A DNA stretch of 63,851 nt, the filler included, from Hausera hauseri (Eukaryota), in NCBI GenBank assembly GCA_046269625.1. It is 11 parts of 11 records of this genome, joined end to end, with 100 filler letters (N's around TTAATTAATTAA, not from the genome) between each part and the next. Parts side by side here need not be neighbours in the genome. Positions count along the whole stretch, not along the records: positions 27,384 to 41,668 come from JBJURY010655440.1; 10 more parts are not named here. One strand, given 5' to 3'. The number at the start of each line of letters is the position of its first letter. Positions within the stretch are counted from its first letter, which is position 1. Both the position numbers and the translations under genes were made by a program. Positions 2,135 through 60,532 of the stretch are shown here, piece after piece. The notes under the pieces are model-generated. The model was given only the letters and a program-made list of their open reading frames with translations, was not told where the DNA came from and made no database searches.

Positions 2135-2170
2135 TGTTTCCTGTGGAATTATACATCCCCGCAATTACTA

Positions 2171-15296: not shown

Positions 15297-18200
15297 ATGA
15301 CCTACACAAACTTAATTGATCGATTCAAGAAACTCAAACTATATTCAGTGTTCAAACGAATGCATCTATTCCCATTGAAATTCTCCCGATCCTCATTAGA
15401 ATTTTGTCGAACCTTGACCGATGGAGTATATGGAAAAGTGTCAAAAATTCGAAACCCATCCATTGGAAAAGTGTTCATAATGAAGGAATTCCATTCCAAG
15501 GAATCAGCAAAAAATGAAATAAAAATCCTGAAGAAAATCCAGTCCCACAAGAACATTATTTGCCTGATCGATTACTACATGTTTGATAATTCTTGGTTAG
15601 TAGTATTAGAATATGCTGATGGAGGAGATTTGTACGATTACATCATGAAATTTGACAATGGCCTACCGGAAACGGAAGCTAAACGATATTTTCGCCAAGT
15701 AATCCAAGCAATTGCTTACTGTCATCATCTGCATATCGTTCATCGGGATTTAAAACCGGAGAATGTCGTGTTTTTCGAAAAACTACAATTGGTGAAATTG
15801 ACTGATTTCGGTTTTAGCAATAAGTTTACTCCTGGTCAAACGTTGGAAACCTCATGCGGATCATTGGCGTACTCTGCACCGGAAATATTGCTTGGTGATG
15901 CGTACGACGCTCCGAAAGTTGATATTTGGTCATTGGGGATTATATTGTTTATTCTCGTTAGCGGTCATTTGCCATTTGATGAAGCTAATGATAGCGAAAC
16001 CCTGTCAAAAATCATGGATTGTCGATTTGATCTCCCTTCACATTTATCTGCTTCTTGTAAAAGTCTCATTAAAACAATGATCGTTCGTGATCCAGAAAAA
16101 CGAGCGACTCTTGACGAGATACTCGCTCACAAATGGTTGGAAATTGGTAATAAAACCAACTGTGATATCGACAATTTCTCTGTTCCACTGATTACTCAAC
16201 AGCATTTAACAATGGAAGAACATTTGGAAATTCTCACGAAAATGAGCGAGGGCAATTTGGCGAGTGTTGAAGAAATCCAATTGACACTAGATAAAAACGA
16301 ATATTCGTACATCAGTGCAACGTATTTTCTGTTGGCTGAACGGAAATTAAAACGTCGTTACATTGAGGAATATTATCGATTGAAATTTCTCGAGTTAAAT
16401 CAGGAGCCGGTTGAAAACGACGAAAATACTTTTGACGAACCGTTGCTGGCATCATCGCCAACGAATCAAAAATCTATCATATCGTCTAATCCGGTTGCCG
16501 AATCGAACGAAGAACGATTCCGGCGATTTAGTATGATTCTTGAAGATGAAGAAGACGAAGAAGAAGAAGAGGAATTCGAAGCAATGATGTCGTTAGCATC
16601 GGTCCGTGAAGAGCTCGAAATAACTTTTCCGAAATCGCAGATCTCGTCGGAAATTCTCTCACCAAGTCGATGTTCTCGTCTGAGTGATGAACAGGAAAAC
16701 AACGATGATACGGAAAATATCGTCAATATTCGATTTTCCAATTTCCGCCAGCAACAATTCACCAAACGAGTCCGTTGTCGATCGGCCGTCTACAGTCGAT
16801 CGTTATCGTCCATTCCCAGTACGAGTCAAATTTTATCCAACATTGTTGAAGAAACCATGAACAACAATGATTTCAACATATCGGCCATTCTCCGTCATTT
16901 TAAGTCGAAAGGTGGCAAAACGACAACATCCCCAACAACGTCGTCATACATTCCACGATTCTATCGGAATTCGTCGGGGACGTTTTATCGACAAACGAAT
17001 TCGATGACGTCGGCCGTTGACAACAGTTTTGACGATAACATTAGTAATAGCAGCAGTTTCCAATTTACCAATAAACAACGTGTCTCACTGCCCAATCGAC
17101 TATTGACAACCCATCTCAACACTTCCAAACGCCGCAGTTTTCCTGCACTTTATTTCCCCACCGGAAATTTGTCTCACAGTCACTCCAGTTCGGATGTATC
17201 GGACAACGAGTCAGCAGTTCGCGGATATGGCGAACAGAAGCGAGTCTCAGTACCGAAATCATTCGGCAAACATTTTCTGTCGTTCAATTTTCACCAGCGA
17301 CAGAATTCCAAACAACCGCCGGAATTGGTAACGTCGAATTCGTCAATTGCTAGTGACTGTTCTCGTTTCTTTTCCCAGTCCGGTCGTCGATTGCGAATGA
17401 AATCTTCTCGCAGTCGACCGAGTTCGATGGGAGCGAGTATGGCGTTCCAGCTCGATGATTTCCAATTCGAAGAGAAGTCGAACAATTCGGTGCCAATGCC
17501 GGTGAACAACAGTCCGACAGTAACGAACATGACGATGCATCGGGACATCTGTGCACCGATTCATGAGGAGGAAGAGTTGATCAGATCCCGGAGTTACATT
17601 GACAAAGAGACCAGCGTGGAGAATCCTTATCATAAAATATATTCATCCTATCGCAGCATTTCTGTCGATTGCCGTCGAAAGTCGGACAGTGCCGAAGGGA
17701 CTCCATCGAAAGTATTCATCAGCATTCCCAACAAAAATCTGTCGCTATCAAAACGCAGCAGTGCAACAACATCGACATTCGTCAACGGTCCCCTTCAACC
17801 TTGTCACAAAACGAACAGTTTCAGTCTATCTAGTCATTTAACCCAATCCAATTTCAGTTTGAGTTCGTTCGCCAGCAGTTTACGTGAATCCAAGGCCATT
17901 ATGAACGTCATTCGTGGTGCATTCGAACTCCAATGTCTGGCAAATCGAATCAAACTCGGTGACCATTCGACCGATGGACGTTGCATGTCCGATGTCTGTG
18001 CGTCAGCTGATGTCAGCGGACGAGAAAGTCGCTGTGAATTCGCATCGATAACCAGTCTCCCACTCGGTCACAAAACCCACTCGCCGGACGATAGCGAATC
18101 CGTGACGTTACTCGCCAAAAACCAATCGCCGTGCATGGGTAATTTCATTATCAATTCTACCGTCCCATCGGATCCCAGTCCGATCGGCGAGTCCACAAAA

Positions 18201-18353
18201 ACCGATTCCCATGCAATCAGTCTCAACAACATGAAGAATCTCAGTTGGAATCACACACCGGTAGCGAACAATTCAACGAATTCGTTGTTGAGAACGTCGA
18301 ATAACGTCAGTAAAAAAGCTAGATCTATTTTTTCTTGTTGCAGAACGTCCTAG
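15297..18353 (+). CDS. SNRK: SNF-related serine/threonine kinase, intronless, atypical N-lobe
   Basis: HRDLKPENVVFFEK, KLTDFGFSNKF, TSCGSLAYSAPEILLGD, EANDSETL and UBA ISATYFLLAE are SNRK-diagnostic. Long Ser-rich tail ending CCRTS. Confidence 0.9.
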   Translation: MTYTNLIDRFKKLKLYSVFKRMHLFPLKFSRSSLEFCRTLTDGVYGKVSKIRNPSIGKVFIMKEFHSKESAKNEIKILKKIQSHKNIICLIDYYMFDNSWLVVLEYADGGDLYDYIMKFDNGLPETEAKRYFRQVIQAIAYCHHLHIVHRDLKPENVVFFEKLQLVKLTDFGFSNKFTPGQTLETSCGSLAYSAPEILLGDAYDAPKVDIWSLGIILFILVSGHLPFDEANDSETLSKIMDCRFDLPSHLSASCKSLIKTMIVRDPEKRATLDEILAHKWLEIGNKTNCDIDNFSVPLITQQHLTMEEHLEILTKMSEGNLASVEEIQLTLDKNEYSYISATYFLLAERKLKRRYIEEYYRLKFLELNQEPVENDENTFDEPLLASSPTNQKSIISSNPVAESNEERFRRFSMILEDEEDEEEEEEFEAMMSLASVREELEITFPKSQISSEILSPSRCSRLSDEQENNDDTENIVNIRFSNFRQQQFTKRVRCRSAVYSRSLSSIPSTSQILSNIVEETMNNNDFNISAILRHFKSKGGKTTTSPTTSSYIPRFYRNSSGTFYRQTNSMTSAVDNSFDDNISNSSSFQFTNKQRVSLPNRLLTTHLNTSKRRSFPALYFPTGNLSHSHSSSDVSDNESAVRGYGEQKRVSVPKSFGKHFLSFNFHQRQNSKQPPELVTSNSSIASDCSRFFSQSGRRLRMKSSRSRPSSMGASMAFQLDDFQFEEKSNNSVPMPVNNSPTVTNMTMHRDICAPIHEEEELIRSRSYIDKETSVENPYHKIYSSYRSISVDCRRKSDSAEGTPSKVFISIPNKNLSLSKRSSATTSTFVNGPLQPCHKTNSFSLSSHLTQSNFSLSSFASSLRESKAIMNVIRGAFELQCLANRIKLGDHSTDGRCMSDVCASADVSGRESRCEFASITSLPLGHKTHSPDDSESVTLLAKNQSPCMGNFIINSTVPSDPSPIGESTKTDSHAISLNNMKNLSWNHTPVANNSTNSLLRTSNNVSKKARSIFSCCRTS

Positions 18354-19029: not shown

Positions 19030-20033
19030 GAATCTGCGATGCAAATATCCAACTCGGTTCACTGTATCCATGCCACTTGACAAGATATTGTTTATTCATA
19101 CCTTTACCGCGTGAACGTAGAATTTCCTGAATACGATATACATCAGGTTTCTCGGGGAGTACCTGCAGTTCCTGTTCTTAGAATTAACCACGTATTTCCT
19201 CGCCGTTTTTATCCTCTAAAACGTACATGACAAGTGTTTGTTTTATCTTGATTGCCGAAATGCGAAAAACCTCTTCGCTCCTGTTCTGATTGAATTTCTT
19301 AATAAATAGCGTCGTACTTATTTTTGAAATACGTACATAATCACTGGTTTTATATTTTGGGCCTTTAATTGCCTGTCGTCCTCGTCGGTTTTGATAAAGC
19401 CACATGTCTAAATCATCGATTACATCAACCGGACGCATTCCGTCGATTTCACGATGTGTCGAATGATTGTATGCATGAATAATATTAGGTAGTACATCTA
19501 CCTAGCGTTTGTTGTCTTGCGTCGTAAAGAATTTGTTTAGACGACCGCGCAATGTTCGATTAAATTGTTCAAAGAGTGCAGCTTTGTATTGGGAAAACAC
19601 CGAGTAGTGGTTTTCGCCGAACTGTTTCAAGACCGCTGTAACGTGGGCGTTGTAGAATTCCTTACCCAAATCCGTTTATATATGTTTCGGTGGCTGCTGT
19701 TGTTGTATCAGTGTTTAAACAGCGTCGGCAATCTCTTTACCGAATTTAGATTTCACGGCAATTGCACGTGCAAAACGACTAAACACATCAACGCATGTCA
19801 GTACGTACCGATACCCATCGTTGATGCTGGCGTACGGAATAATTTTCATCAGATCCATTTGCCATACATTATTTACACTGGAATAACGGTATGCACGAGT
19901 TGGAAACCGCCCTCCTATCGGTTTGTTTAGGCTGTTTGCTAACTGTTTCCGGAGCCAACGTTAAGTCTGTTGCCGAGTCTGTTTGACAGTCTTTGCCGAC
20001 GGGATGACGCCGGTCGAACCACACGTCGCGCAT
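19030..20033 (-). pseudogene. Polinton-type retroviral-like integrase with C-terminal chromodomain
   Basis: WQMDLMK..YASINDGYRYVL.CVDVFSR, TDLGKEFYN, KAALFEQFNRTLR, EEVFRI, EQELQ-like, YLVKWHGY. Several stops. Confidence 0.85.
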
Positions 20034-20062
20034 CGTCGGTGTTGTCGTCGATTTTGCTTGCA

Positions 20063-20748
20063 TTACAACAATTTGAACGAAGCGTAAATGAAAGATTTGG
20101 TAAACTGGGACAGAAAGATGAAAACCATGCACCCATATCGCCTAATCACCATATATTTACCGTCATTGTTTATACTGTGATGTTGTTTCAGTCGTTTACT
20201 AGGGGCGTTGGCAAGGCCAATGAGTCGTTTTCGATACTTTAGTAAATTGCGCTTTTCATTACCAATTTCAACGTGACCCACAACGATATTGTACAAAATT
20301 TCCATCAAATCGTCTACTAAAAACTGTGGAAATGATCGTAGCATGTTCCGCTTATGTCTCATAGGTGCCTTAATCAAAGCAATAAAGTACGGCTGACTAC
20401 ATTTGAATCGCATCCTTTTTTGTGGAAGTATTGATACTGCTGATGAAATGTAGTTGTTTATAACCGTTGCCATTTTGACAATAATTTGCGTCCAGCTACT
20501 GTTGTTCGATGCACCGAATTGATTAATCGCTTCACTGTAGCGGCGCTTCGTTTTGATACTCGTTTCTTGCCGCCGGGGACCTGCTTGGTAGGTTCTTTAC
20601 GTTTAACAATTGTTTTTCGGAAATTTTCATTTTCATGTCGTCGTGGTCGTCGATTTTCCAATTTGTTTATAGACACATACACCGCCTTCCTGAATGAAAA
20701 TGTCTGTTCGTACATGCATGTCGTCGGGACACTGTTGTGTAAAGTCAA
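20063..20748 (-). CDS. Two small basic Polinton-like virus genes between ATPase and integrase
   Basis: ORFs 20458-20748 and 20063-20473 have recognisable homologues at about 51958-52520 in the second copy. Confidence 0.55.
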
Positions 20749-21141
20749 TTAACATAATCCATGCTGTTTGTTCGTAGCATCATGATATGCATCTATCAAG
20801 TAGTCTCGGTTGTGAGGAAATGCTTGTCGTGCAACATAATCAATGATAGCCTGATCACGGGGATTTTTGAACAATACCAAATAGTGTACGTTGAGATTTC
20901 GTGTTCGATGCTGGCCGCCATGATGGAACATGTTTTGCGTAACGAAAATAACCGTTACGCCACGATGTCGTACAATCTTCGTGAACAGGTTGTTGAAGTC
21001 CGATTGTTTTGCGGCTTCGTGAAATAAATCGTCGATAACAATAACTTCACCGCTGCGTAATCTCTCTGACCAGTTTTCATCAAACCCAGAAATTATTGTT
21101 ATCGATGATTTCAGTTTACAAAATTCCCGATGTGTCAGACA
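20690..21141 (-). pseudogene. Packaging ATPase (A32/FtsK-like), C-terminal half
   Basis: Walker B VIVIDD, RHRGVTVIFVTQN, YLVLFKNPRD. The N-terminus is replaced by an insertion. Confidence 0.88.
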
Positions 21142-27383: not shown

Positions 27384-27854
27384 TTTGCCCCTGAAGAAAT
27401 TATGTTTGGCCACAGGTTAGAGAACAGATACACGTTAGTGGACCTACCGTCCACTGACGAGAATCCCAAAACTAATGAGGAAGCCATCGAAGCATTTCTG
27501 AAACGCATTATTGAAATAAGACAAAAGTATGACAATAATAAAAATAAAAAGCATGCAGCAAATGCGACTTTTAAAAATAAGCATGCGAATGAGAAATGCT
27601 TTGCACTAGGCGACCTCGTTTTACATAGACAATTGCAGGTAAGCACTGGTACTGCCTCCAAGTATCGACCTCAGCTCACGGGTCCGTATGTCGTCCAAGA
27701 GATCGCCGGGATAACGGCGACGTGCAAGCATTTAGAATCGGGAAGAATAATCAAGGCTCACTTTTTGAACCTTGCACCATACAGGTACGACGAAAATACG
27801 TTCTACCCCCCCAGAGAGGCTCTTGGGCAGACCCTCGGGGGACAAAATATATAA
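27384..27854 (+). CDS. pol: Integrase C-terminal region
   Basis: FAPEEIMFG, FALGDLVL, KYRPQLTGPYVV (GPY/F motif). Confidence 0.88.
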   Translation, partial: FAPEEIMFGHRLENRYTLVDLPSTDENPKTNEEAIEAFLKRIIEIRQKYDNNKNKKHAANATFKNKHANEKCFALGDLVLHRQLQVSTGTASKYRPQLTGPYVVQEIAGITATCKHLESGRIIKAHFLNLAPYRYDENTFYPPREALGQTLGGQNI

Positions 27855-27960
27855 AAAGCAGCATTTTTGCTACAAACGGTACAGTCATTTGACTACCGTC
27901 GAAGTAGCAACATTCCTCCACAGAATAATACTGAAGTTCATCAACAACCAACAAGGTAAG

Positions 27961-30468
27961 ATGACATTTAAAGCTCTTGCTCTTGCTCTTGCTCTCACCC
28001 TTCTCGTGACTGCTTCGATAATTAAGAGTGAGGTTCTGTCAAAAGCTAATTTAATTTACATCAAATCAGACAGAACAGCTACAATTAACCCAACCTTTGT
28101 TAACTTCCATAGAACTTTTGATTACGCAGCCATAGAACTTAGCATGAAAACACTAGATGTTTTCCTGGGACTATATCGGTCGTTTTGCAGTAACACTGAT
28201 AGAGTATATTATGAAACACCTGAAATTAACTTCGTAAAATCCACGACTTTTCAACAAGCACAATACAGATGTAACGATCTTCAAGCTAACCTTCCTGAAG
28301 TAAATTCAGAAGAGGACGCAAGATTCCTAATAGATCAAATGAGAAAGTACTCAGTCGGACGCATATATGCAGGCATCGGATATTCCGAAGGCCGACATGT
28401 CGCACTATCAGACATTTCCGACATTAAATACAAAAAGACCATCCTTTGTGAAAATTGTACGGTCCTAACACAAGGACTCACACAAAGCGAATATGACAGA
28501 ATAGTAACACAACACGGTTCAGAAATCCATTTTTTATATGGCATTCATAAAGAACAATTAGTTATAATACCAAAAGCTCACGACCCTAAAAAAGATTGTC
28601 CCCAATATCCAGTCATTTGCTATGGTAGACGAAGACAAATGTCTAATTCATTACAATTAATAGCGAAGCAGTCATGCAAAAGGGATGAACTAGAAATGGC
28701 TCGAATCAACGCCAACCTAAAAGAAGAAATTTCGCAGTTCGTAACACCTTCTTCAAGATTTAAAAGAACAGTCAATGAACATTTATACAATGAATTAAAT
28801 ATAGAGCCTACTAGGGAAAAGAGAGCGACAAGAGCAAAGAGAGCTATTGGTTTAATAGGAGCTGGAATCGGAGCAGGTTATTTAGGGATTGAATCCCTAA
28901 ATAGCATGATCAATAACCTGAATCCATTCTCATTAATGGGAAAGGGACTCGCAGCAATTTTTGGGTTTGCAACAAGTCAGGATTTGCAATTAACACAAAA
29001 ACAATTAGAATTACATTCTCAAGCAATTAAAAACATTTCCATCAACCAAAACATGTTAATTGCCTCTCACCTTCAAGTCACAAAAGACATCGATCAATTA
29101 CAAAAAGCTTATAGAAAACAAGAACATGATATCGCAGTTCTTTTTACAAACCTTGACAATAAGATGTCTGTACGCAATCTCCAGACTTTGTTGCAAACCA
29201 CGCTATTAAAGATGTCGCAGGCTATTGCATCAGCCTTACAACATCAGCCGTCCCCTTACGTATTCGGAGTTGCAGATCTCAAAAACCTCACCACTCTTTT
29301 TCAAACAAACTATGTGCCTTTAACTAATAAGTTACAAGATGTTATTACAACCGTCGCTATCATTGAAAACATCATCACATTTGTTTTTTCGGCACCAATT
29401 TTAAACCCTAAAAATGACTTATTTCTTTACGAAATTAGAGATCTTCCAGTATACACTAATAATTTACAATACCGATCTAAATATCATAATAGATATCTTG
29501 CAATTAGTTTTAAAGATGATCAATATACAACTTTAACCGACTCCGAATACTTTAATTGTCGACAATATTTTGTTTGCACGGCTGCGACACCTTTCTTAGC
29601 AATTGGCCCAGACTCTCCATGTGAGATTCTGACGTTAAAATATGATACCCCGCACTGTGAACTTGAACTGTACAACGGGCCAGTGCAAAACTTTTTGACG
29701 TATGGCAACGTCACTTACTATTCTATAAAAGAACAAATTGAAGTCCACATTGTTTGCGAGGACTCCTCCCAGGCTCCCTTTAATAAACACCAAGTAATAT
29801 ACGGCGCTGGCAAATTACAAATTGCACCAGGATGCAACGTTAAAATATCTAAATTTGCAAACATTCGCCCGAGTTATATAGTCAGTCGCCATAATCTTGA
29901 TAGTGACACTTTCTTTAAATTCCTTCAGGTGCCTGGTCATTTGCCACACAAATACCCCACAACAATTGCACCTAGTAATGTGTCACGACCACCACTTCAT
30001 CTCAATGAAGTAAAAACTGTAGGAGAAGCTATAAACATAGTTTTTAACCAGGATTCGACTTTCTCAGAAATAATACGAATTTCTATTTACATAATTACAA
30101 TTGCATCGATCCTGGCAACAATTTACTGCTGCATTCCCCGATTCAGACTCTGGTTTAACGGTTGTTGTTTTATTGAAAAACCTACTAAATATTGGCGTGA
30201 CATTAAAGGATATAAAGTTCCTGATTTTATAAGTCGACACAGACAGTTGGAAGCAGCCAACACTTGCATAGAAATGGAAAAAGTCGACAACAATATTGAA
30301 AAAGTCACGGCCCCGGAACCAGAGAATAACCCAAAGCCTGAAAAAGATCCCAAAGAGGACATTTTTGAACCCCGCCCAGTAGAGGATGTGGCCCCTCCCT
30401 ACCCGTTCAACAGGCTTAATAGACTGTACAGTCCATTATTAATATCGCAAATAAGACGATTCCAATAA
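27961..30468 (+). CDS. env: F-type envelope glycoprotein with C-type-lectin-like insertion
   Basis: Signal MTFKALALALALTLLVTAS; furin sites RFKR, REKR, RAKR; Gly-rich fusion peptide; heptads; Cys-rich region; TM IIRISIYIITIASILATIYCC; cytoplasmic tail with PPYP. Confidence 0.88.
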   Translation: MTFKALALALALTLLVTASIIKSEVLSKANLIYIKSDRTATINPTFVNFHRTFDYAAIELSMKTLDVFLGLYRSFCSNTDRVYYETPEINFVKSTTFQQAQYRCNDLQANLPEVNSEEDARFLIDQMRKYSVGRIYAGIGYSEGRHVALSDISDIKYKKTILCENCTVLTQGLTQSEYDRIVTQHGSEIHFLYGIHKEQLVIIPKAHDPKKDCPQYPVICYGRRRQMSNSLQLIAKQSCKRDELEMARINANLKEEISQFVTPSSRFKRTVNEHLYNELNIEPTREKRATRAKRAIGLIGAGIGAGYLGIESLNSMINNLNPFSLMGKGLAAIFGFATSQDLQLTQKQLELHSQAIKNISINQNMLIASHLQVTKDIDQLQKAYRKQEHDIAVLFTNLDNKMSVRNLQTLLQTTLLKMSQAIASALQHQPSPYVFGVADLKNLTTLFQTNYVPLTNKLQDVITTVAIIENIITFVFSAPILNPKNDLFLYEIRDLPVYTNNLQYRSKYHNRYLAISFKDDQYTTLTDSEYFNCRQYFVCTAATPFLAIGPDSPCEILTLKYDTPHCELELYNGPVQNFLTYGNVTYYSIKEQIEVHIVCEDSSQAPFNKHQVIYGAGKLQIAPGCNVKISKFANIRPSYIVSRHNLDSDTFFKFLQVPGHLPHKYPTTIAPSNVSRPPLHLNEVKTVGEAINIVFNQDSTFSEIIRISIYIITIASILATIYCCIPRFRLWFNGCCFIEKPTKYWRDIKGYKVPDFISRHRQLEAANTCIEMEKVDNNIEKVTAPEPENNPKPEKDPKEDIFEPRPVEDVAPPYPFNRLNRLYSPLLISQIRRFQ

Positions 30469-30546
30469 TATCGCAATAAGACGATTAATAATGTATGAAA
30501 ACACGTGTATAAATAAATTTTTCAATTTTCCATTTGTTAATTTAAG

Positions 30547-32556
30547 ATGCATCAATCAACGACGAATCAATCAAAGACGAAACAATCAAAGACGAAGAAG
30601 AAACATGCTCCGGTCAGCGCAGCCAACCCTGTTTACGATTGGGATGACACTAGCCCCTTCAATCTCAAGCTCCAATATCCCAAGAACAAGTCAAGATTCA
30701 TGCAACTTGATGACCACTCAATGAGCAGCCCCATCATGTCTACGGTGGACAAAAAGCAGGAATGTCCACATAACCACACCACAATGCGTGAAGCAGGATC
30801 TAACATGTTTATAACCTTTCCTTATAAACCATCCCTCATGACACTTCTAAGACGAGTCATGACCACTCCAACTGACAAAACCATAAGTGCCTTTGTCCCC
30901 GATCCTCCACGAGTCTATGCAGGCTATCAAAACCACTGGAACATAGCAGTGGACACACCGGTCCTTTCCATCGTTGGTGCTTGTAATACCAACATTTCAT
31001 CACTCATCGTCACGAGAGAAACGTACGAATACGCCATGGTGAAAGTCATGGCATCCACTGCAAGAGAGCAGCACATCGTTGAATTCAAGGTACCATTAAT
31101 TCAACTCATTGAAACTGCTCCACACAGGATTGTTGTCGAGACGGCCTCCGCACTCGACATTGACGACCATCTCATCACGTACATCATCCATGCCCAAAAT
31201 CCGAAGGAGCCCTTAGCCATGATCAAGCTATGGAATCTTTCAACCTATGGATGCTCCAAACTCCATCTACAATCCGTGTACCAAGTCCCTCGTGTAGAAG
31301 TTACCGACGAACTACACATTCTCGGTCTCTCAGGTGACAGACTTACAACATTCAATGTCACTTTTCCCTACATCAAAGACCCAGTCATGACGATGCTGGA
31401 AGAACTAGACCTTCAAGCTATTGGGTATAGAACAAAGAAGACCTCAAAACCCAATTTCTCCCTCACAACCTTCGAGAAATTGCCCAACTGTGCCGACCTC
31501 AACCTCATGGCACGGATGACACCCCAGAAACCGACCTTCAGACACCCGTCTGAATGGGCCAACACCATCGTATTGCCAACACGTTCGGTCACCTACCAAG
31601 GCAAGATCCCAACGAAGCCATTCTTCTACCCTCCAGCAATCCGACACAGACCAGGAACGCCATACGGGGTAATCAAACCAGTCTTATTCCCCGCAGGTTT
31701 CCAATCCTATAGGAACCTATCAACAAACAAATTGACATCTGTGAAAGATGTCATCAACGATGTTGCGTTCAGCATTGGTTCTGATCAATTAGAGGATGGC
31801 TTAAAAGAATTCGCTCAGCAGTATGCCATCACACAAGAGTTTGTACGAGACAGCCTCTTGATGCCCTTTGAAGAATTCTACAAGAAGATACCCAAATGCT
31901 ATTACAACAAGCACAACCAACCTTACTTCATTCGATCGCCAGTGAAAGAAATCATGCCCGTCGACTGGATACACTCGACCAAACATCCAGCCGTTTCGGA
32001 TCGGACCACACAAGTAAAAATAATTGGTGAAAATGAAAACTTTGATTTTCCTGTTTGCAGTGACGACTGCAACCCAGAAGAATCCACCATTGCAATCAAC
32101 GGTGACGTCGAAACCGAAATCCTGCCGGACGACATCATCGACCCCGATTTCTGGTTCTCAGATGACCCACTATTCCCATCTGCAGACGAATCAGACGCAA
32201 CCATCAGAATGGACATGTTGCCGGCCGCTCCTTTACCTTCAATCCCGATTGAAGAACCTTCCAGAGTTAAACCCAGAAAAACGAAAGCCTCACGCAAGCA
32301 GGTTGCCCAAGATCCCATGTTGAGTGATGCCGCACTCCCTGATGACTTCCCTGACGCTTTAAAGATGATCATCGAAAGACTGAAACAAGCCGAGGCCAAG
32401 CCATTCAAATCTGAACAGCCGGTTGACGCGCACAAGACCATGTTTGAGAGCATTCCAGAAGATATGAAGAAGAAAATACAGAAGACTGCTATTGAAACTA
32501 TTATTAAGGCCGATAAAGATATCATTCATAGTATTAACATGAAACTTAAAAAGTAA
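30547..32556 (+). CDS. 669-aa orphan accessory ORF between env and LTR
   Basis: Long intact ORF: basic N-terminus, globular middle, acidic/Pro-rich C-terminus. No recognised domain. Confidence 0.8.
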   Translation: MHQSTTNQSKTKQSKTKKKHAPVSAANPVYDWDDTSPFNLKLQYPKNKSRFMQLDDHSMSSPIMSTVDKKQECPHNHTTMREAGSNMFITFPYKPSLMTLLRRVMTTPTDKTISAFVPDPPRVYAGYQNHWNIAVDTPVLSIVGACNTNISSLIVTRETYEYAMVKVMASTAREQHIVEFKVPLIQLIETAPHRIVVETASALDIDDHLITYIIHAQNPKEPLAMIKLWNLSTYGCSKLHLQSVYQVPRVEVTDELHILGLSGDRLTTFNVTFPYIKDPVMTMLEELDLQAIGYRTKKTSKPNFSLTTFEKLPNCADLNLMARMTPQKPTFRHPSEWANTIVLPTRSVTYQGKIPTKPFFYPPAIRHRPGTPYGVIKPVLFPAGFQSYRNLSTNKLTSVKDVINDVAFSIGSDQLEDGLKEFAQQYAITQEFVRDSLLMPFEEFYKKIPKCYYNKHNQPYFIRSPVKEIMPVDWIHSTKHPAVSDRTTQVKIIGENENFDFPVCSDDCNPEESTIAINGDVETEILPDDIIDPDFWFSDDPLFPSADESDATIRMDMLPAAPLPSIPIEEPSRVKPRKTKASRKQVAQDPMLSDAALPDDFPDALKMIIERLKQAEAKPFKSEQPVDAHKTMFESIPEDMKKKIQKTAIETIIKADKDIIHSINMKLKK

Positions 32557-32942
32557 AAAGGCTCTTACAGCCAAAGTAAAAATTGAAAAATTCAAAAGCT
32601 CTTAAAGCAACAAAAACAAAACGCGCACAATTCACAATTTTTGGATCCAAACTTTCTTTAGATTTAAAATTACATGCACCAATTTTTGAAAATCCATTGT
32701 TCCTTTTAACGCGAATAGGAATCTTTTATTATAAAAAGTAACCATGTATTTGTAACTCCCATACTCCCTTTTAGCGCGAATGTTTAATTAAAAAGTGACT
32801 ATGGAAATAACGCGAATGTTTTACAAACTTATTACAATTCAATTTCAATTCACAAAATGTTACTATTTTAATCATGTCATTTTGTCTCCAAAGGAGCAAA
32901 CCCCAGCGAGTGCACCCTGTTCTTTGCCCCTTTGAACGCGAA

Positions 32943-33428
32943 TGTAGAAAACATATTAAAATACGTAACTTACTTACATTTTGGACAAACTATGACTCAT
33001 CCTTTTTGCTAAAATCATGGTGAAATACCAAACCATGACTCATCCTTTTGCTAAAATTATGATGAAATACTTCCCCCAATTCAATTAAAAAGTTAATTGG
33101 ATTTTGCAGACATCGCATGTCAAACACCAATAAATCATTGCTGGCAGTAAAATCTCTGCCAACCTATAAAAGCCCAGCTTTCTTGTCATAGTTAAGTCAT
33201 AACAAATCCAGACTCTGATCCGCTAACTTGCCCCCTCCAACTTGTAAGTACCAAAACTAACTTTTCATTATCTGTAACTTAGCATAAGCTGAATAAAGAT
33301 ATGATCTGTTCTTGGACTTGTAAATCGGGAGGGATACAACTAAGAGAACACAGGAAGACTAGAGAATCATTCGCCTAGAATTTTTCTCCTCTTTGAGGTT
33401 TTATTCTAAGTCGAAAATCTAGCCTACA
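32943..33428 (+). repeat. Putative LTR (about 486 bp)
   Basis: Inverted termini TGTAG...CTACA, duplicated TGACTCA-containing block (32992-33028, 33035-33070), TATAAAAG 33165-33172, AATAAA 33292-33297. Only one copy, so the boundaries are inferred. Confidence 0.6.
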
Positions 33429-33628
33429 TTTTTTTCCTTTTTCATTTCAATTTTTTCCACAATGGATATTTTTTACGGAATAGCAACTCTGATAGCGTGT
33501 TTTGCTTGCTGTTTCGGACTGATGGTAACCTCCATTTAAACTGAGCTTTTATCATTGCACCATATTTCATGTCGCACGTTTAAATATGCCATTAGAACAT
33601 TTTGCATGCACCATATTTCATGTTATTT

Positions 33629-33708
33629 CACGAGTAGCCCATTGCACTCGTTATATTTCTATGTTATTTTAATATATAAATAACACGAGTAGCCCATTGC
33701 ACTCGTTA
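33629..33708 (+). repeat. Two identical 25-nt hairpin-forming repeats in the leader
   Basis: CACGAGTAGCCCATTGCACTCGTTA at 33629-33653 and 33684-33708, with an ACGAGT/ACTCGT stem. Confidence 0.85.
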
Positions 33709-33775
33709 ATTTTTCATATATTTCATGTGTAGACGGCATATTTAAACACATTTTGAAAAGCTCAGTTATATTTAT

Positions 33776-35338
33776 ATGTTGCACACCTCACCGTGGCTAT
33801 GCACAATTCCTTGCCACAATTACCGAATGTCCATTACAGCAGCAAACCGCAATCGTAAATTCAAGTGTAAAATTCACGGCCAGATTACTAGACGATGTCT
33901 ATACCTCACCAGAGAATTAGATCACGTCAAAATACTGAATTTAAGTATAGAACTTTTACTGCTACAGTTTCTGACTCTTTGTGCATTCCTATTGTCGCTA
34001 TAGCCAATATTTTGAATACGTTTAACGAAGCAAATAATTCCCTGTTAAACGATAGAGAATTGAGACATTTAACTCAGGCATTAGCTATCCTGAGCCGTAG
34101 TGGACTGGAATTTATCTCGCGTCACAATCGCCAACGAGATATTGAAAACAATAATGCCAGTTCCACTCCCTAATGGTATTGTAGGAAGACCTATAACAGA
34201 CAGAGAATTGAACATTCTTGTCGATAAAGTTATGGTCCTCACTGATTATCTCCAAGAAATAAGTAATTACGATAAACAAGACCCCATTGATCAAGATACT
34301 CATTTTTACATTACCTTTGCTCTCAGACTATTAGCAAATCGCATTGATGGTTTTGCATACCGTCATGACATCGTGCTGATACAGCGCGAATAATTCCCCT
34401 ACACAGAAAACTCTTGATGAAACTTTTTCTGCCTGGCCAACAGATTCTGTTTCGTTAATTTTTTTCCTGTGTTTCAAATAAGGTTTATATTAAAAAGTAG
34501 AATGCCCAATCACAGTAGTCCATCAAGAACTCTATTTTTCATCAAAGTACATTTGTTTAAAACAATCCAATTACTTCAGCAAATTAATAGATCAAGACTA
34601 GTTGACCATCATGAACAAAATATTGTAGAAATTGTTCATCTTGTTTTTGAACTCGCAAATCACCTTAATGTTTTTTACACCACCAATGGACTTGCCAATT
34701 TTGCATATTGACATTCCCTCAGCCCATACCTTATTTTCCATCCAATTAAAATGGAAAATTTTCATCGCAGCATTAACGAGAGAATACTCTTTGCTACGAT
34801 TAGAGCTAATATTAGCAGACTCAACGATTTGGCAACAAACATTTCGTATATCAGTCCGTCAAACTTAACTACTGAAATTTACGACATAATTGATTCAGTC
34901 ACAGACTCCCTTGCGACATTAGAGAATGAACCAAGAGCCACAACAAGCTCCAACTTTACCGTTCAGACAGGGACAAAGAGACCTGCAAAGAACGGTCGCA
35001 CTTATTGAATGCACACTTCTTATTCTAACTGATCTCCTAATTAAATTTGATCAGCACAATACCATAGATAGATGGGACGTAATAATCTTCCTGTTACGAC
35101 AAATAAGTGACGCTCAATTTCAGCTTTTAATGATTTTATAAAAATGGAAGAAGCACCAGTAGCTACTCCATTTGCTCTGTTACAAAGATCTGCAGAGAGA
35201 CTCCGCGATCTCATAGTCTATTATCATACACTAACTCTTGAGGAAATCAGACAAAGCCTGATCCTCACGCAAAGAGACATTTACGAAACTCTCATATTTT
35301 ATACAAACGAAGATAGACCACATATTCCCCACTTTTAA
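33776..35338 (+). CDS. Array of about 7 small (64-92 aa) co-oriented ORFs between LTR and gag
   Basis: ATG ORFs at 33776-34003, 33895-34173, 34154-34393, 34502-34711, 34751-35008, 34926-35141 and 35144-35338. Tightly packed, amphipathic, partly self-similar. Confidence 0.55.
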
Positions 35339-35579
35339 TTAAAGGACAGAGTTCAGGACATTTTCTTTATTTATGTGAAGTGAAAAGAGACACTGCAACT
35401 TTTGCTGTTTTGCCGACGAAAATAAAGACATTACCGGCAATTCACCAACCATTCTGGCTGCTTCCTCGTCCAAACGCCGGGAAGCAATTCTGAACGCGAA
35501 CACACGTGAGTATGAACAATTTTTCCAGTTGTAAAAATTGAAATGTTATTTTTTTGACTCTTGTGTTCTCTGACCTGTT

Positions 35580-38240
35580 ATGGCAAACGCGGGAATAGAT
35601 AAAGATCACCCCATATACCAAAATGTCCTAAAAAGTCTAAATAATTTGAGAAAAGAAGAAGGAAGAGAGCAAATTACAAATTTACCACCTTGGTGGACGG
35701 TTTTACCACAACGCCACCTTTTATCTCTTATTTTTCGTTTCAATAAGGAAATTGACTGGCATAAACAAAATCAAATAGCCAACAAACGTCTAGGTCTCCC
35801 ATACAAAAATCAGATTTATCTAAATGAAACAGAGCACCAACTCTGGTTATATAATCATAGACAATTACGCATTGGACAAAATCAAGTCCAATCAGTTCCT
35901 TCTGTTCTCATTGACGAATTTGATGAAAAACTCTATTTTCCTGACGGTAAAATCACCGATCAAGTAGTTTTCATCACAGATACTGATTGCCGTTTAATAA
36001 ACACTCCCACATATGTTGAGTCTCAACAAATTTATAGAGCTACTCATTCACTTAAGGGATATGTTCCCCCGAGTGTTGTTTCATCTGTTCAATCCTCTAT
36101 ACCAGATTTTGCTGGAATACCATCTTCTACTCCGCTTAATTTAACTAGAGACATTGAAGGATTAGATTTAGAAGGTTTAAATCTCGATCCTGAAAGAAAG
36201 GGAAGTCTCCCTCTACAACGCAATAACAGCGATTCCATACTGTCTGTTTCCAATTCGTCTATAGAAACTGTTCATATAAATCCTGAAGTCGACAATCCAT
36301 TTATTCCAACAGACGACTCCAATATAGCACAAGGTGCCATTCCAAAATCTACACCAACCAAAATAGAAGGAGAAGACGATTTTGACAAATCTATTCTCTC
36401 ACCTCCGTTTATTCCACCAATCGTAAAGTCTCCTCTTTATAAACCTCGCATAAGCTTTCCACCAAATTTAGACAAAAATCCATTAACAGAAAAATTATTT
36501 GAAAGAAGGGGACGAACAAAATTGCCTCCCCTTAATATTGAAGCAGCAGAACAATATAGACAGCAAGAAATGGAAGACGCAATTAGAAAAATTCAAACCC
36601 TAGAAAGAGAGAAGGCTGCTCTAGCAGAAAGCCTTCGTAAAGCGGCTATTCAACCAGCCGCCGTAAAAACAGAAAGGCAAGAAATAAGCGACTTGAAAAA
36701 TCAAATGGGAGATTTGATGAATATGGTAAAACTAATGACAATAGGCAACCAAATGAATGTAACCACAGATTCAGAAAGAAAATTGGTAGATAAGTTCCAA
36801 GATGTCACCATGGACACCAATCCTCCATGTCTATTCATTACGTTGGATAGACCAACAAATATCATTCCCGTTTCTGAACGACGATTTCCTGAAACATTGT
36901 CATGCCTTAAACCAACGACGATTATCAATACCGTTGGAACATTTGATCCCACCACCTCACCGGAGGTTGATTTCCGATGTATTTGGGACAGAATTTTAGA
37001 TCAAACTAGAAACTATTCATTGTACGAACATGAATATGTTATGTGTCTCAGAATCGTAATGAAAGGATCAGCAGGCTCAGATCTAGACAGAATGATTAAA
37101 CAATATCAAGGCGATCTTAACCAAATCTTAGACGCCATTCAAGATCTGTATATTCCTCAAAATACGATATTTGATGAAATCATTGAGTTGAACACGTTTA
37201 AACGACGTCCAAACGAACACATGAAATCAATGGTTCGTAGAGCGTCTCTTTTGATTGGAAAACTGAAGCCGACAGTAGCGCCGGCAGCTTGGGACGATCG
37301 TCAACACCACCTTTTGAGTCAAATTATCAAACAAGTAATTGATAAAGAAACTTTTGTCTATCTCAAGGCAGAAGAAATAAAATGCGCACAAATGGGACAA
37401 ACTCTATCAATAGAAGCAATTACGAACATTGTAGATTTTTTCGAAGTCTCTCATAGCCGTGTCCCTACAACAGAAGTAAAATTACAGTATGATGTTCATT
37501 CATGTCGCATTATTACTCAAACTGACGATCAAAATAATAAAACTGAAATTGACGAATTGAAAAATGAAATAAGCAATCTTAAAACATCCATCAATGTACT
37601 TGCCCCCAAGCGTCGTAAAATAGATAACGCAGTGAACAAACCGCTGAATACAGCAAACAGTTCACAACAACGCAAACAAATTTTGCCTAAACGCCGTTTT
37701 CAGCCAACTGAAAAGATGGATACGTCTGAAACGTCTCTTGTAGTCCCACAAAATAATCCAAACAAGAGATCATTTGATTCCAACGTTGGCAAACAGTATA
37801 GTTATGGCCAACCACAGACACCATCACAAAAGCAAAATTATCAAAAGGCAAAAACGAGATTCGTTCCTTCCTATCCTGGGAGTGGCTCACAGAGTACCAA
37901 GACCACTCCCATTCCGTCGCAATATCGCTCGTTGGATTACTACAACGATCACGATAGAACGACGAATTTTTATAAGGGGAAATATTCTTACAAAGGAAAT
38001 AATTACTATCGCTCTAGATCAAAAAGCCCCTATAGAGGAAGATCGCAATATGGTTATTCTAGAAATAGAAGTCAATCCCCTTACAGGAATAATGGCAAAC
38101 CAAAGAAAAGTTATCACTTCAGAGGGAAAAGACATGACGTCGCATTGAATTTTTACAAATGTTCCATTTGTCCTGACGCTCATGAAACTGGTACTTCATG
38201 TACCACGTTTAAGGCGTTGCCATATTCCCCAAACGCATAG
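35580..38240 (+). CDS. gag: Gag-like polyprotein (886 aa)
   Basis: Position before pol, coiled coil plus helical capsid-like core, RS/Y-rich basic C-terminus and CSICPDAHETGTSC knuckle. Confidence 0.82.
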   Translation: MANAGIDKDHPIYQNVLKSLNNLRKEEGREQITNLPPWWTVLPQRHLLSLIFRFNKEIDWHKQNQIANKRLGLPYKNQIYLNETEHQLWLYNHRQLRIGQNQVQSVPSVLIDEFDEKLYFPDGKITDQVVFITDTDCRLINTPTYVESQQIYRATHSLKGYVPPSVVSSVQSSIPDFAGIPSSTPLNLTRDIEGLDLEGLNLDPERKGSLPLQRNNSDSILSVSNSSIETVHINPEVDNPFIPTDDSNIAQGAIPKSTPTKIEGEDDFDKSILSPPFIPPIVKSPLYKPRISFPPNLDKNPLTEKLFERRGRTKLPPLNIEAAEQYRQQEMEDAIRKIQTLEREKAALAESLRKAAIQPAAVKTERQEISDLKNQMGDLMNMVKLMTIGNQMNVTTDSERKLVDKFQDVTMDTNPPCLFITLDRPTNIIPVSERRFPETLSCLKPTTIINTVGTFDPTTSPEVDFRCIWDRILDQTRNYSLYEHEYVMCLRIVMKGSAGSDLDRMIKQYQGDLNQILDAIQDLYIPQNTIFDEIIELNTFKRRPNEHMKSMVRRASLLIGKLKPTVAPAAWDDRQHHLLSQIIKQVIDKETFVYLKAEEIKCAQMGQTLSIEAITNIVDFFEVSHSRVPTTEVKLQYDVHSCRIITQTDDQNNKTEIDELKNEISNLKTSINVLAPKRRKIDNAVNKPLNTANSSQQRKQILPKRRFQPTEKMDTSETSLVVPQNNPNKRSFDSNVGKQYSYGQPQTPSQKQNYQKAKTRFVPSYPGSGSQSTKTTPIPSQYRSLDYYNDHDRTTNFYKGKYSYKGNNYYRSRSKSPYRGRSQYGYSRNRSQSPYRNNGKPKKSYHFRGKRHDVALNFYKCSICPDAHETGTSCTTFKALPYSPNA

Positions 38241-38297
38241 ACGCTTCGGAAGTCGCTGCACCGAAGCTAACTCTCGGATTGACGGACACATCAGCGA
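38228..38297 (+). other. -1 programmed ribosomal frameshift signal (slippery heptamer and pseudoknot)
   Basis: C CCA AAC in gag frame; stem GCTTCGG(38243-49)/CCGAAGC(38261-67); loop TCGCTG pairs with CAGCGA(38292-97). The -1 frame is open into pol. Confidence 0.75.
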
Positions 38298-41200
38298 GTG
38301 TCCCTTTCAATTGTTCTGTAATCAAAATGAGTAAACTGGCTATTCGTAAAACTTTTGAACCAAAACTTTACTATATCACCCTAATCTTGCAAACTGAAAA
38401 TTCTACATGCAAAGTAAATGCTCTTGTAGATATTGGTTGTGCCAAAACTGCAATGTCCAAAATTACTTTTCGGAAACTACACAACAAAGACAGTACTCTA
38501 CAACTCGAACAAAGCGAAGTAAAGATCCAAACTTGTGACGGTACAAACCATTCTATCATGGGATTCATCCAAATTGATATTCATTTTTCTGGTTCCGACT
38601 TCAAGCTACGTCAACAACAAATAATGGTTGTTGAACAACTCAGTGATGAATTCATCATTGGTTCTGACATTCTTGGTAGCGAAGTTGTCTCAAAAATACA
38701 ATCACCTTTCATTTATTTTCACAACTCAGGAAAAGAAATAAAACAGGAAATGAATCTAGTCACATTTCCCCAACTCACTTTACAGTCAATCAAAAATCTA
38801 ATTATCCAACCTTTCCAACAATTTTGCATTTCCACAAAAATTAAAGGAATAAAAGTCCTCGAGACTCCCCTAATATTCAAGTCAGTATTCCCCCACCTCA
38901 AATTGACAAAAATTGCATTTGAGGATGATAACATTTTTGCTTCCATAGAAAATGATTCTAACCACCAAATTGAATTGCAGTCAGGCAATCCAATTATAAA
39001 CATACACAAACCTCCAATGTTAATAGCAACCCCACATGATGATTATATGGATGATGACGAAAAACAATTCTGCATAGAAACTTTTAAACAGGAAGGGTCT
39101 TATCAACCCTCTATCACTGCCTTTATTGAAGAACGTTCCAACATTACAGAAGCAGACAAAATAGATATCCCAGAAAACGTCACAGAGGAAGATTTTATCG
39201 CTATGTTCGAACTTTCCCATTTTAATGAAAAAGACAAAAATTATCTGATAGACATTCTCAAATCAACCAGACCAGCTTTTTCCGTTCACAAATATGACAT
39301 TGGAAAAACTCATTTGATTACCATGGACATTGAATTAATAAAAGATGATGATATCAAAGTCCAAAAGTACGTTCCTATTTCCATGAATGTAATTGACAAA
39401 GCTAATGAAATTCTTGATCAGATGGAGAAATATGACATTATTAGAGAATGTCACTCTCCATCACAATATTGCTCTAACATTTTAGTCATACCTAAGAAGG
39501 ACAAAAATGCAGTCCGATTATTGTTTGCTGGTAGACTACTGAATTACAACACGAAAAGATTACCCGTCGCTATAATCACGAAGGCAGAAATTTTGGCCCA
39601 CCTTGTAAATAAATCTCACTTATCGTCTCTTGATTTTGCCGACGCGTTCTTTCATATTCCGCTTACAGAGAAAGCGCAGAATCTTACAGCGTTTTGGACG
39701 CCAAATCACGCTAAAAAGATGTGTTTTAATCGAGCCCCACAGGGACTCCGTAATTCTCCCATGTATTTAAAAACTTTGCTTGACTTAATATTTTTTGATC
39801 TCAGTGAAAATGTTCTATTTTATGCAGATGATCTTTTGATAGCCACTAATGGAACACTCAAGGAACACTTTGAATTCCTTCGATTAGTACTAGAAAGACT
39901 AGTCACTGCGGGTCTGAAACTTAGACCGCAGAAACTTTTGATTGCACGAGAAACCATAAATTTTCTCGGAATGGTATTTTACAAAAACACACTTTCAATT
40001 CCTGAGCTGAAGCTCAAAGCATTTCGTGAATTACCAGTGCCAAACACCGCGAAAAGGATGAAATCAGCTTTATGCGCCTTTTCATATTATCGACATTTTG
40101 TTCCAAACTTTGCACATATAACTCGTACTTTACATGAGAAGGCCTCATGTAAAACAACATTTAAATTTACATTAACTGATGAGGATATAAGTCAATTTAA
40201 GTCTATAGTGAAGACAATTTGCGACAACGCAATGACTTACTATCCAGAAAAAGATAAACCTTTTTATGTACAGACCGACGCCTCACTATATTGTGCTGGC
40301 GGTCGTTTATTTCAACGCAATGAAGACGGCCATGAAATGCTCATCGCCGCAGTAAGTCGAACCTTTACAAAAACCGAAAGAAATTACACCATTTATAAAA
40401 AAGAGGCACTAGCATTGTTGTACACTCTCCGAGCATTTGATTATTTCTTAAAATATGCTCCAAAATTAATCTTGCTAGTAGACGCCAAAGCACTTACTTA
40501 TATAAGATTGGCTAAAGAAGGTGCCCCTATTCTGCTTCGATTCTCGTTGGAACTTAGTAAATACGAAGCAGACCTCATTCATGTTCCAGGAGAACAAAAT
40601 GAAATTTCCGATCTCCTAAGCAGACAACATAAACATATTCCTGCAATTGAGATGGAAAAACTTGATAGACCGACCATTAGTGAAAAAGACACCATAAAAA
40701 TCATCGACGCACTCACCATTCCGTCAAACTTCTCTTTGACAAAATCTCAATTATTTTTTCTCCTTAATGGTCCCTCTCCAGTTGATGACATAAAGGTTGT
40801 AAAACAAACAAAAAGTAAAGCTCAACCTGGATTGAAAAACGTGAAAAACACGCCAGTTACGTTGCATAAAAGAAAAATCAAAATGCCCCGAACAGTAAAA
40901 GTGTCAGTCATAAAAACTAACAAGAAAATCCAATTCGATGACAATGTCACGTATATAAACGTAATTGAACCACCTCTAATTGAAGGTGAAGATAATCAAG
41001 AAGTCAAATCTTACACAGATGTTCAATCTCATTGCATTATTTCTAATGGTAATAAAATTTCCCCTAAGCAATTTCATTCTCTGCAAATGGCAGACCCCAC
41101 GATTGTGGCTTGCATTGACAATAAAGATAAGAATCTCTCATTGAAAAATGGCATTTTTTATAAAATATGCAACGGAAGTAAAAAGATTTTTCTACCAGAA

Positions 41201-41668
41201 AGTTTGATGGTACCCCTTATTACGCTACATCATTATGTAGCACCTGGGATTCATAAGACCAAACAACAAATTTCACGTGACGTCCGTGAAACTTATTACG
41301 TATCTCAGTCTAAATTCGATCAATGCATCAAAGAACAAATTAACAACTGCCACATTTGCCAGATATTTTCAGATGGTAAACAACATCTTAAGATACTACA
41401 ACTTCCACGTCATAGCACAACCAGGCTCTCGTGGTCAGTTGATCTTGTAACCGATCTGTCAGTATCCGACAACGGCTACAAAATTCTTCTGATAGCAGTA
41501 GACGATTTTTCTAACTACATTGTGGCCATACCACTTAGAACAACAACAGCTAAAGAGCTAATTCAGGCAATTAAGAACCATTTGATTAGCCCTTTTGGCA
41601 TACCTAAGTTCATAAGATCTGATGAGCAACCTGGTATTTACAATTCCAAAGAATTTTTCGCATTTTTC
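38279..41668 (+). CDS. pol: Pol polyprotein: protease, RT, RNase H, integrase N-terminus/core (cut by contig end)
   Basis: LVDIG and IIGSDIL (PR); LDFADAFF, APQGLRNSP, YADD (RT); TDAS, KKEALA, VDAK, SDLLSR (RH); HH..H..CHIC, WSVDL, RSDEQ (IN). Confidence 0.93.
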
Positions 41669-51321: not shown

Positions 51322-51955
51322 ATGATAAACAAATCATGTGAGGAATGGTTGTATTATTATTAGATGAAGCTGCAGAATGATTCCATTTTCCAGATTGTAG
51401 GGCCCAGTGGAAGTGACAAAACACACTTTGTATGTAAACTATTGCAGAACTACCGTAACATGTTCCATTCACCGCGGTACAATCACATTTACTGACATCA
51501 GAGTGTTGGTGATGATGGTGAGTCCGGTTTGGCACATCAGGAATTTTGTATACTGAAATCGATAACAGTAATTGATGGGTTTGATGAGAACTGGTCATAG
51601 AAATTATGCAACGGTACCGTTATTGTCATTATCGATTTATTTCAGGAAGCTGCGAAACAATCGTACTTCAACAACCTGTTCACGAAGATTGCACGGCGGA
51701 CAGAATCGAACACGAAATCTAAACGTACACTATTCGGTGTTGTTCAAAAATCCCCTTGATCAGACTATCATTGATTATGATGCGTGACAAGCATTTCCTC
51801 ACAACCGAGCCTAATTGATAGATGCATGTTATGATTCTACGAACAAACCGCATGAATATCTGTTTATTGACTTTACACAACAGTGTCCAGATGGAATTCT
51901 TGTACTAGCAGATATTTTCAATCAGAAAGGTGTACATATCTATAAACAAATTCGA
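51322..51955 (+). pseudogene. Polinton packaging ATPase, decayed
   Basis: GPSGSDKT (Walker A), VIVIIDLFQEAAKQ, LFKNPLDQ, YLFIDFTQ. Homologous to 20690-21141. Confidence 0.85.
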
Positions 51956-60529: not shown

Positions 60530-60532
60530 GAA

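Follow-up and report, generated by a model that had tools for sequence, protein, structure and literature searches.

A cassette of eight small open reading frames upstream of gag in a Ty3/gypsy-type element from the Hausera hauseri assembly

Introduction

LTR retrotransposons are commonly thought of as two- or three-gene elements, and the best-studied exception carries two small ORFs. The closest known system is formed by sORF1 and sORF2 of Drosophila MDG1, which are conserved, translated small ORFs located upstream of a Ty3/gypsy gag; in the available text of that report, both are carried on unspliced LTR-to-LTR RNA, and sORF1 is a predicted helix-turn-helix protein of nuclear location (10.1101/2025.03.14.642691). 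MDG1 has these two ORFs and no env, whereas the element described here has eight small ORFs (sORFs) and, besides an env-like gene, a fourth long ORF. The "ancient errantiviruses" of metazoans (PMC13524379) share with our element a Ty3/gypsy gag and pol and an env-like third gene. As far as the main text of that survey goes, they have three ORFs and mostly tRNA primer sites, in contrast to the 12 ORFs and the lack of a TGG-starting site in our element, and accessory ORFs are not mentioned there. Members of the present lineage may be listed among the 1512 elements of the survey's supplement.

Other systems share single traits with the locus. In the available sections on Oikopleura Tor3b/4b (PMC4402516), env is expressed from an internal promoter after pol, as we predict for our element, and no sORF cassette or ORF4 is described. 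Walleye dermal sarcoma virus has an accessory ORF 5′ of gag (orf C, presumed in the accessible part of PMC3185748 to be translated from genomic RNA), further accessory genes and a complex-retrovirus layout; it is a retrovirus of vertebrates and has only one ORF upstream of gag, whereas the RT studied here is closest to that of Ty3. Overlaps of the UAAUG type are shared with rhabdovirus accessory genes, caliciviruses, influenza B and SART1, and the tandem duplicated accessory genes of rhabdoviruses, whose role is not established in the portions of these sources at hand, resemble the cassette (PMC4334499, PMC10275272, PMC5902531). No matching layout was found in the available text of PMC5408684 and PMC7998251, and an incomplete literature search, falling short of most subscription journals, Repbase and the 1512-element supplement of PMC13524379, found no such cassette. 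The view of the initial annotation that an array of this kind upstream of gag is not a standard feature of LTR elements was upheld.

In what follows, the window is the whole 63,851-nt stretch of DNA that was analysed, whose parts are separated by N linkers; the 102-nt repeats detected in it are these linkers between contigs and not biological repeats. The finding concerns the part at positions 27384-41668 (JBJURY010655440.1).

Organization of the element

The order of features along this part is pol end, env-like ORF, ORF4, LTR, sORFs, gag and pol start, and the natural order deduced from the sibling contigs is LTR, sORFs, gag, pol, env and ORF4. Since the siblings show this order and two of them are circular, with end overlaps of 94-99 nt, the sequence indicates that the part is a circular permutation of a Ty3/gypsy element of ~15 kb. 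A gene order with env before gag was ruled out, as the contig is circularly permuted. In total, the element has 12 ORFs, that is, the eight sORFs plus gag, pol, the env-like gene and ORF4. All its features given below are on the plus strand.

The LTR was localized, as a collapsed single copy, at 32943-33428, with the ends TGTAG...CTACA that are the same in the five elements including an LTR. It contains a TATA motif at 33165, a donor-like GTAAGT at 33244, within R, and AATAAA at 33292. In three of four public runs, contigs begin at 32940-32941, beside the LTR start. As the contigs are collapsed or circular, they do not show paired LTR copies with a target duplication. A tRNA primer site starting with TGG is absent after the LTR in 5/5 elements, and a U-rich tract, T6-7 C T5-6 in all five, lies where such a site is expected (33429-33455). 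Read on the minus strand, this tract resembles a purine tract before TGTAG. A plain purine tract before the LTR is likewise absent; a mixed CCCCTTTGA(A/G)CGCGAA motif stands there instead in 5/5 elements. Up to five extra GCGAA-TGT copies were observed upstream of this motif, which lies at 32922-32942 in the window, when L002, L003, L004 and L008 were compared.

The gag-like ORF (35580-38240) encodes 886 aa with a C-terminal Cys/His knuckle; it has 16 relatives with 43-61% identity and belongs to no Pfam family. A slippery heptamer followed by a hairpin (38228-38234) predicts a -1 frameshift into pol, and the heptamer is in the right phase in the seven elements examined; on account of this site, a separately translated, foamy-like pol was rejected. 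The row of L005 was left out of the pol frame comparison. The pol gene (38327-41668, continuing at 27384-27854) runs off the contig end and encodes PR, RT, RNase H and IN. Its domain order according to Pfam, PR-RT-RH-IN, is of the Ty3/gypsy type, and in comparisons with solved structures the best matches were to Ty3 (E 3e-36, for Gag-Pol, and 1e-29), ahead of foamy and HIV RT. Based on the pol order, the Ty3-type RT and the TG...CA ends of the LTR, we assign the element to Ty3/gypsy (Metaviridae). At E<=1e-60, its pol falls among 186 clusters, nearly all of metagenome sequences.

Right before the env AUG, a predicted internal promoter and a donor-like GTAAG (27848-27960) are present in 6/7 elements, with a TATA motif followed ~31 nt on by an initiator-like motif, also in 6/7. 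The initiator-like motif in this position resembles the arthropod consensus. The env-like ORF (27961-30468) encodes a putative glycoprotein of 835 aa with a signal, a furin site, a TM segment and 18 Cys, features found in six elements; the furin site and the C-terminal hydrophobic segment are present in 6/6 and the N-terminal hydrophobic segment in 5/6. The protein has no solved-structure match at E<=1, the F and gB fusogens included, and a sub-threshold C-type lectin match near its N-terminus (Pfam, E 0.016). ORF4 (30547-32556; 669 aa) shows 27-47% identity in five siblings and has an acceptor-like AG within 10 nt of its AUG in 7/7 elements; no family, fold or usable ESM Atlas match was found for it, with a model of low confidence (pLDDT 49) and a best Z of 4.0. 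We propose that env and ORF4 would be expressed from the internal promoter, ORF4 by splicing from the donor just before the env AUG.

The other parts of the window contain another Ty3/gypsy element, not related to this one, in which pol is accompanied by an env resembling baculovirus F (E 5e-5; 1145-6002, minus strand), a Ty3-type gag fragment of a third element (60532-62100) and a 46-bp satellite of ~170 copies on its own contig (41769-49588). Additionally, ~2 kb are common to two contigs in opposite orientation, with 82-89% identity (19063-21106 and 51558-53566), and an intronless Ser/Thr kinase ORF of 1018 aa is located at 15297-18353. This kinase is presumably SNRK-like.

The small ORFs upstream of gag

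Between the LTR and gag, at 33776-35338, the initial annotation had described a tiling by plus-strand ORFs of 64-92 aa, by implication the seven here named a to g. All of them, with their quoted motifs, are present, and an eighth, x, had been overlooked. The eight ORFs of at least 60 aa (60-92 aa) fill 93% of these 1563 nt. Dinucleotide shuffling (1000 runs) gave 0.44 ORFs on average, with maxima of three ORFs and 50% cover, so that none of the shuffles reached the observed values; the minus strand has one ORF of at least 60 aa. The distances at the junctions, with overlaps as negative values, are -109 (a/b), -20 (b/c), +108 (c/d), -26 (d/x), -118 (x/e), -83 (e/f) and +2 nt (f/g). The near-continuous tiling by overlapping or abutting codons that had been described is thus real except at one 108-nt break, between c and d.

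The first ORF, a (33776-34003; 75 aa), is basic and then hydrophobic; its C-terminal stretch of 19 hydrophobic residues is a predicted membrane anchor, with a hydropathy of 2.0-2.2 in 3/3 sequences. A helix of the pattern L-x2-L-x6-F-x3-H is found in b (33895-34173; 92 aa), and c (34154-34393; 79 aa) has the same helix at its C-terminus. After the non-coding, fast-changing c-d spacer (34394-34501), recognized from substitutions among near-identical copies, follows d (34502-34711; 69 aa), whose slot is conserved and whose sequence is not alignable to siblings; no stop was gained in d among near-identical copies. From its conserved AUG, x (34686-34868) has 60 aa (66 aa if read from 34668), and it overlaps e in a different frame. 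Amphipathic helices characterize e (34751-35008; 85 aa), and f (34926-35141; 71 aa) has two helices with invariant His44 and Arg58. The best conserved is g (35144-35338; 64 aa), with 45-56% identity, which begins just past the f stop. A donor-like splice site (35503-35511; GT at 35506) lies between the cassette and gag, 68-80 nt upstream of the gag AUG in the seven close elements.

From 146 pattern matches in contigs of metagenomes, a gag profile picked out eight loci, our sibling set; no relatives of the element were found in the viral contigs searched. In a pol tree of seven, L001-L006 are close, and L007 and L008 are distant. For seven of the eight sORFs, homologues are present in siblings and are arranged in the same order. 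Counting the element in the window, e, f and g occur in 7/7 members of the close group, x in 6/7, c in five and b in three of the four that cover its slot; c was found afresh in L006 (E 7e-21), and the L001 contig begins after the c slot. Four of the sORFs, a, b, c and x, are missing from L004. Profiles from which the window sequences had been left out recovered, among 3474 peptides, b (E 8e-19), c (1e-12), x (4e-17), e (9e-15), f (6e-25) and g (7e-28). Regarding a, a homologue was found in L002 (E 8e-10), and the a slot of L003 is not alignable. The profile of d from L003, L005 and L006 gave no match to the d of the window at E<=20 among the 3474 peptides. The distant elements carry four (L007, 127-1218) and five sORFs (L008, 4534-5862) in the same place, with equally tight junctions and no detectable similarity to a-g.

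Refutation had been tied by the initial annotation in part to broken frames and a dN/dS near 1 among related copies. On the contrary, pN/pS was below 1 in 23/23 family-pair comparisons, with a bootstrap interval that excludes 1 in 17; the intervals including 1 are those of b, d, x and e between the window and L002, x between L003 and L005, and e between the window and L001. The values were 0.58 for a, 0.83 for b (interval including 1), 0.59 and 0.17 for c, 0.47-0.83 for e, 0.25-0.42 for f, 0.20-0.34 for g and 0.24-0.30 for the d of L003, L005 and L006. Synonymous sites are near saturation among siblings, with amino acids conserved. Third-position divergence drops within the x/e overlap, for e from 0.67 to 0.44 and for x from 0.64 to 0.46, and both frames are therefore constrained. 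Near-identical copies from four runs were compared as well. Of the 40 substitutions listed for them, the 110 non-coding nt contain 13 (Fisher p 1e-6), almost all within the c-d spacer, where two 1-nt deletions also occur; each of the three indels affects either this spacer or the stop codon of c. Among the substitutions listed, single-frame codons show nine synonymous versus eight nonsynonymous changes, and no stop is gained.

Searching 1.84 billion proteins, the f profile found 19, of which 17 are stand-alone proteins of 39-96 aa, and His44 and Arg58 are invariant in 18 aligned sequences. The identity of f and g (42-57%) equals that of gag (45-59%). Judged by these comparative data, the sORFs are real, conserved protein-coding genes under purifying selection, and the proposal that accessory proteins are encoded in the leader of this retroelement is borne out by the homologues as well as by the pN/pS values.

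Relationships among the small ORFs

The array had been proposed to be a duplicated family of paralogous two-helix hairpins, three of which share a C-terminal helix. For b to g, a hairpin is suggested by the sequence pattern; it does not extend to x, predicted as a four-stranded beta-meander (model pLDDT 81), or to a, with its hydrophobic tail. In all-versus-all comparisons of the sORFs in the window, the b/c pair gave p=0.0025, and the other 27 of the 28 pairs did not reach p<0.01. Comparison of family profiles by ungapped profile score also gave one of 28 pairs at p<0.01, which was c/d (p 0.0025), with 0.08 for b/c and 0.11 for b/d. The profile alignments of b, c and d all end on the same His; their whole-profile scores (15-22) do not exceed those of unrelated gag helices (maximum 21-25).

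We also scanned ~26,000 windows with the 22-residue C-terminal helix, leaving out one family at a time, with an anchor that was picked after the motif had been seen. The top three matches were d, d and c for b; d, d and d for c; and b, c and b for d. The d proteins with the helix motif are those of L003, L005 and L006, and the motif of the window d was not recovered by any cross-family test. The mutual top matches of the helix suggest, weakly, that duplication accounts for the b, c and d slots, which probably derive from an ancient event of this kind. No significant kinship to other sORFs was found for a, x, e, f and g. A single paralogous microprotein family for the whole array is not supported, as the signal is limited to the b/c/d slots and x is all-beta. 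In view of the predicted meander fold of x and the membrane-like tail of a, we consider the array a mixed cassette.

Expression of the small ORFs

Reinitiation and alternative splicing had both been suggested as means of expression. We analysed 43 junctions in nine elements, which are related, so that the events are not independent: the stop and start codons lie within -1 to +2 nt of each other in 12/43 and within -30 to +15 nt in 28/43. The tight junctions span at least seven different junction types, and the counts include the L007 and L008 arrays; in the window itself, one of seven junctions abuts. Strict splice acceptors precede two of the 43 sORF AUGs, and relaxed ones precede 32/43, versus 111/210 background windows, with none ahead of c, x, f and g of the window, unlike ORF4, which has one at its AUG in 7/7 elements. 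The array has 20 AUGs versus 23 expected; this lack of a depletion counts against pure leaky scanning. Since the junctions are tight, the acceptors before the sORFs are not conserved and AUGs are not depleted, termination-reinitiation is the better supported of the two suggestions. Our somewhat favoured reading is that the cassette would be a polycistronic accessory set read by termination-reinitiation, with gag reached through a bypass.

Under this proposal, the a/b and x/e pairs, with AUGs 60-120 nt apart, would be sorted by leaky scanning, and the series b, c, d, x/e, f and g would be read by termination-reinitiation without a general TURBS. This absence is the weakest step of the model. 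The TURBS core UGGGA, 40-80 nt upstream, occurs in only 4/40 cases, all before g (4/7 elements), where Trp-Asp codons force it; with variants included, the count is 5/40, against 35/315 in the background. In the available text of the sources, termination-reinitiation is reported for caliciviruses, influenza B and SART1, with UAAUG coupling in SART1 and viruses (PMC10275272, PMC5902531), and reinitiation after ORFs of this length usually requires a helper element (PMC10275272). The known cases couple two ORFs or depend on the viral protein TAV, whereas this cassette has up to seven junctions in series and no general TURBS. Six or seven rounds of reinitiation would leave g at a very low level, unless there is internal ribosome entry as well. 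A cassette mRNA without gag-pol would be possible through the donor that follows g.

Regarding gag, 31 AUGs precede its start for a scanning ribosome. The 50 nt upstream of the gag AUG are complementary to U5 and to the tract that follows the LTR, forming two nested helices: an outer helix of 13 perfect pairs between 33343-33355 (U5) and 35559-35571, and an inner helix between 33443-33455 and 35533-35545. The 3′ arms of both (35533-35571) end 8 nt before the gag AUG. A short uORF (AUG 35543) lies within these arms, 36-37 nt before the gag AUG in 7/7 close elements. The inner helix beats shuffles in 5/5 elements (reached in 0, 6, 0, 0 and 0 of 200) and the outer helix in 2/5, being reached in 57/200 shuffles for the window, 2/200 for L002 and 6/200 for L004. 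Compensating changes were observed in two elements: the outer helix persists in L004 with both arms altered in sequence, and each of the two helices carries one double change in L003. Arms of different elements, however, pair nearly as stably as those of the same element. A U5 uORF of 11-25 codons is in the same place in 5/5 elements; its end coincides with the stem base in L004 alone (1/5).

Given the 31 AUGs, we infer that these helices probably serve as a shunt, by which ribosomes would reach gag over the base-paired arms, looping out the 2.07 kb that contain the cassette. Shunting is described for plant pararetroviruses and foamy virus in the available text of PMC5902531; in the CaMV, RTBV and foamy virus cases, a basal stem folds out the leader, whereas here the looped-out segment is coding. 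The helices may also act in packaging.

It is unlikely that the same proteins come instead from a set of RNAs spliced in alternative ways, as in HIV, from the donor in R (33244) to acceptors ahead of the sORFs and of gag, with the helices serving packaging only. The donor-like GTAAGT is indeed found in R of the window element, L002 and L003, the donor after g is present in 7/7 close elements, AG sites occur in the g-gag spacer of all seven at a loose threshold, and pairings between U5 and gag are reported to act in packaging in MPMV and FIV (PMC4878616, PMC2987497). Nevertheless, the acceptors before the sORF AUGs are not positionally conserved, and splicing leaves the abutting stops and starts in unrelated arrays unexplained. 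A spliced gag-pol mRNA is possible. We regard it as quite improbable that the cassette has an internal promoter of its own, whose transcript would be divided up by spliced-leader trans-splicing or read by reinitiation. Such a promoter would fit the TATA-like motif at 33739 and the initiator-like motif at 33762, just ahead of a in the window, the TATA-like site in L002 and the initiator-like site in L003, as well as the TATA and initiator before env in 6/7 elements, an arrangement like that in the available description of Oikopleura Tor3b/4b (PMC4402516). However, the motif pair is not kept in L003, L004 and L008, and abutting ORFs leave no room for trans-splicing acceptors.

Possible functions of the encoded proteins

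Returning to the cassette as a reinitiated accessory set, its proteins have 57-108 aa across elements, are mostly neutral or acidic and show strong helical amphipathy. Neither catalytic nor myristoylation motifs were found in them, and none of 43 begins with Met-Gly. Pfam gave nothing above curated cut-offs for seven sORFs of the window (a to g) or 18 f proteins, and sequence searches of solved structures with the g, f, x and c profiles gave a best E of 0.12. Fold searches for x reached a best Z of 5.3, a generic meander, and a best E of 0.14 in the viral library; the ESM Atlas had no usable match for g. For the anti-silencing or decoy role considered in the initial annotation, known suppressors were compared in sequence and fold, and none matched. 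The sORFs are gained, lost and, in L007 and L008, wholly replaced as modules, which is why we read them as accessory genes of host interaction. The favoured though tentative assignment for these small, seemingly soluble proteins, which we place slightly below even likelihood, is that they would be host-facing regulators (of counter-silencing, RNA export or transcription) acting as oligomers.

That they are virion or membrane parts, with a as a FAST-like fusogen or viroporin and the hairpins as a capsid-bound hetero-oligomer, seems improbable or at best unlikely. The hydrophobic tail of a in 3/3 sequences, the fixed stoichiometry that coupling would give and the gag-like conservation of f and g all agree with such a role. 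Against it, the Met-Gly start is lacking throughout, an env-like gene is already present and L004 does without four of the sORFs. The layout of MDG1 sORF2 and FAST proteins, with N-myristoylation, a central TM segment and a polybasic patch after it (as given in the text available), was found in none of the 43 sORFs; only a has a TM-like stretch, which is C-terminal, with the basic patch ahead of it and no cytoplasmic tail. The weakest alternative, regulatory uORFs or chance frames with irrelevant peptides, draws on the window d without alignable homologue and on the commonness of uORFs in long leaders; it is scarcely credible overall, and for b, c, x, e, f and g it has been largely refuted by amino acids conserved at saturated synonymous sites, invariant residues, dual frame constraint and the shuffles.

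Conclusions

In its most far-reaching form, which is doubtful at present, the interpretation would be that an undescribed, widespread Ty3/gypsy lineage of ~12 genes runs a true eukaryotic operon, in which ribosomes bound for gag jump a 2-kb loop whose five to eight microproteins, a modular counter-defence kit against the host, arise through serial reinitiation, with priming that does without a standard tRNA site. The lineage members examined carry four to eight selected microproteins plus env and a fourth gene, which would place retrotransposons on par with complex retroviruses. The cassette would give at least seven new protein families as candidates for host conflict, and it would allow the number of ORFs that animal ribosomes can translate serially from one RNA to be examined in a natural setting.
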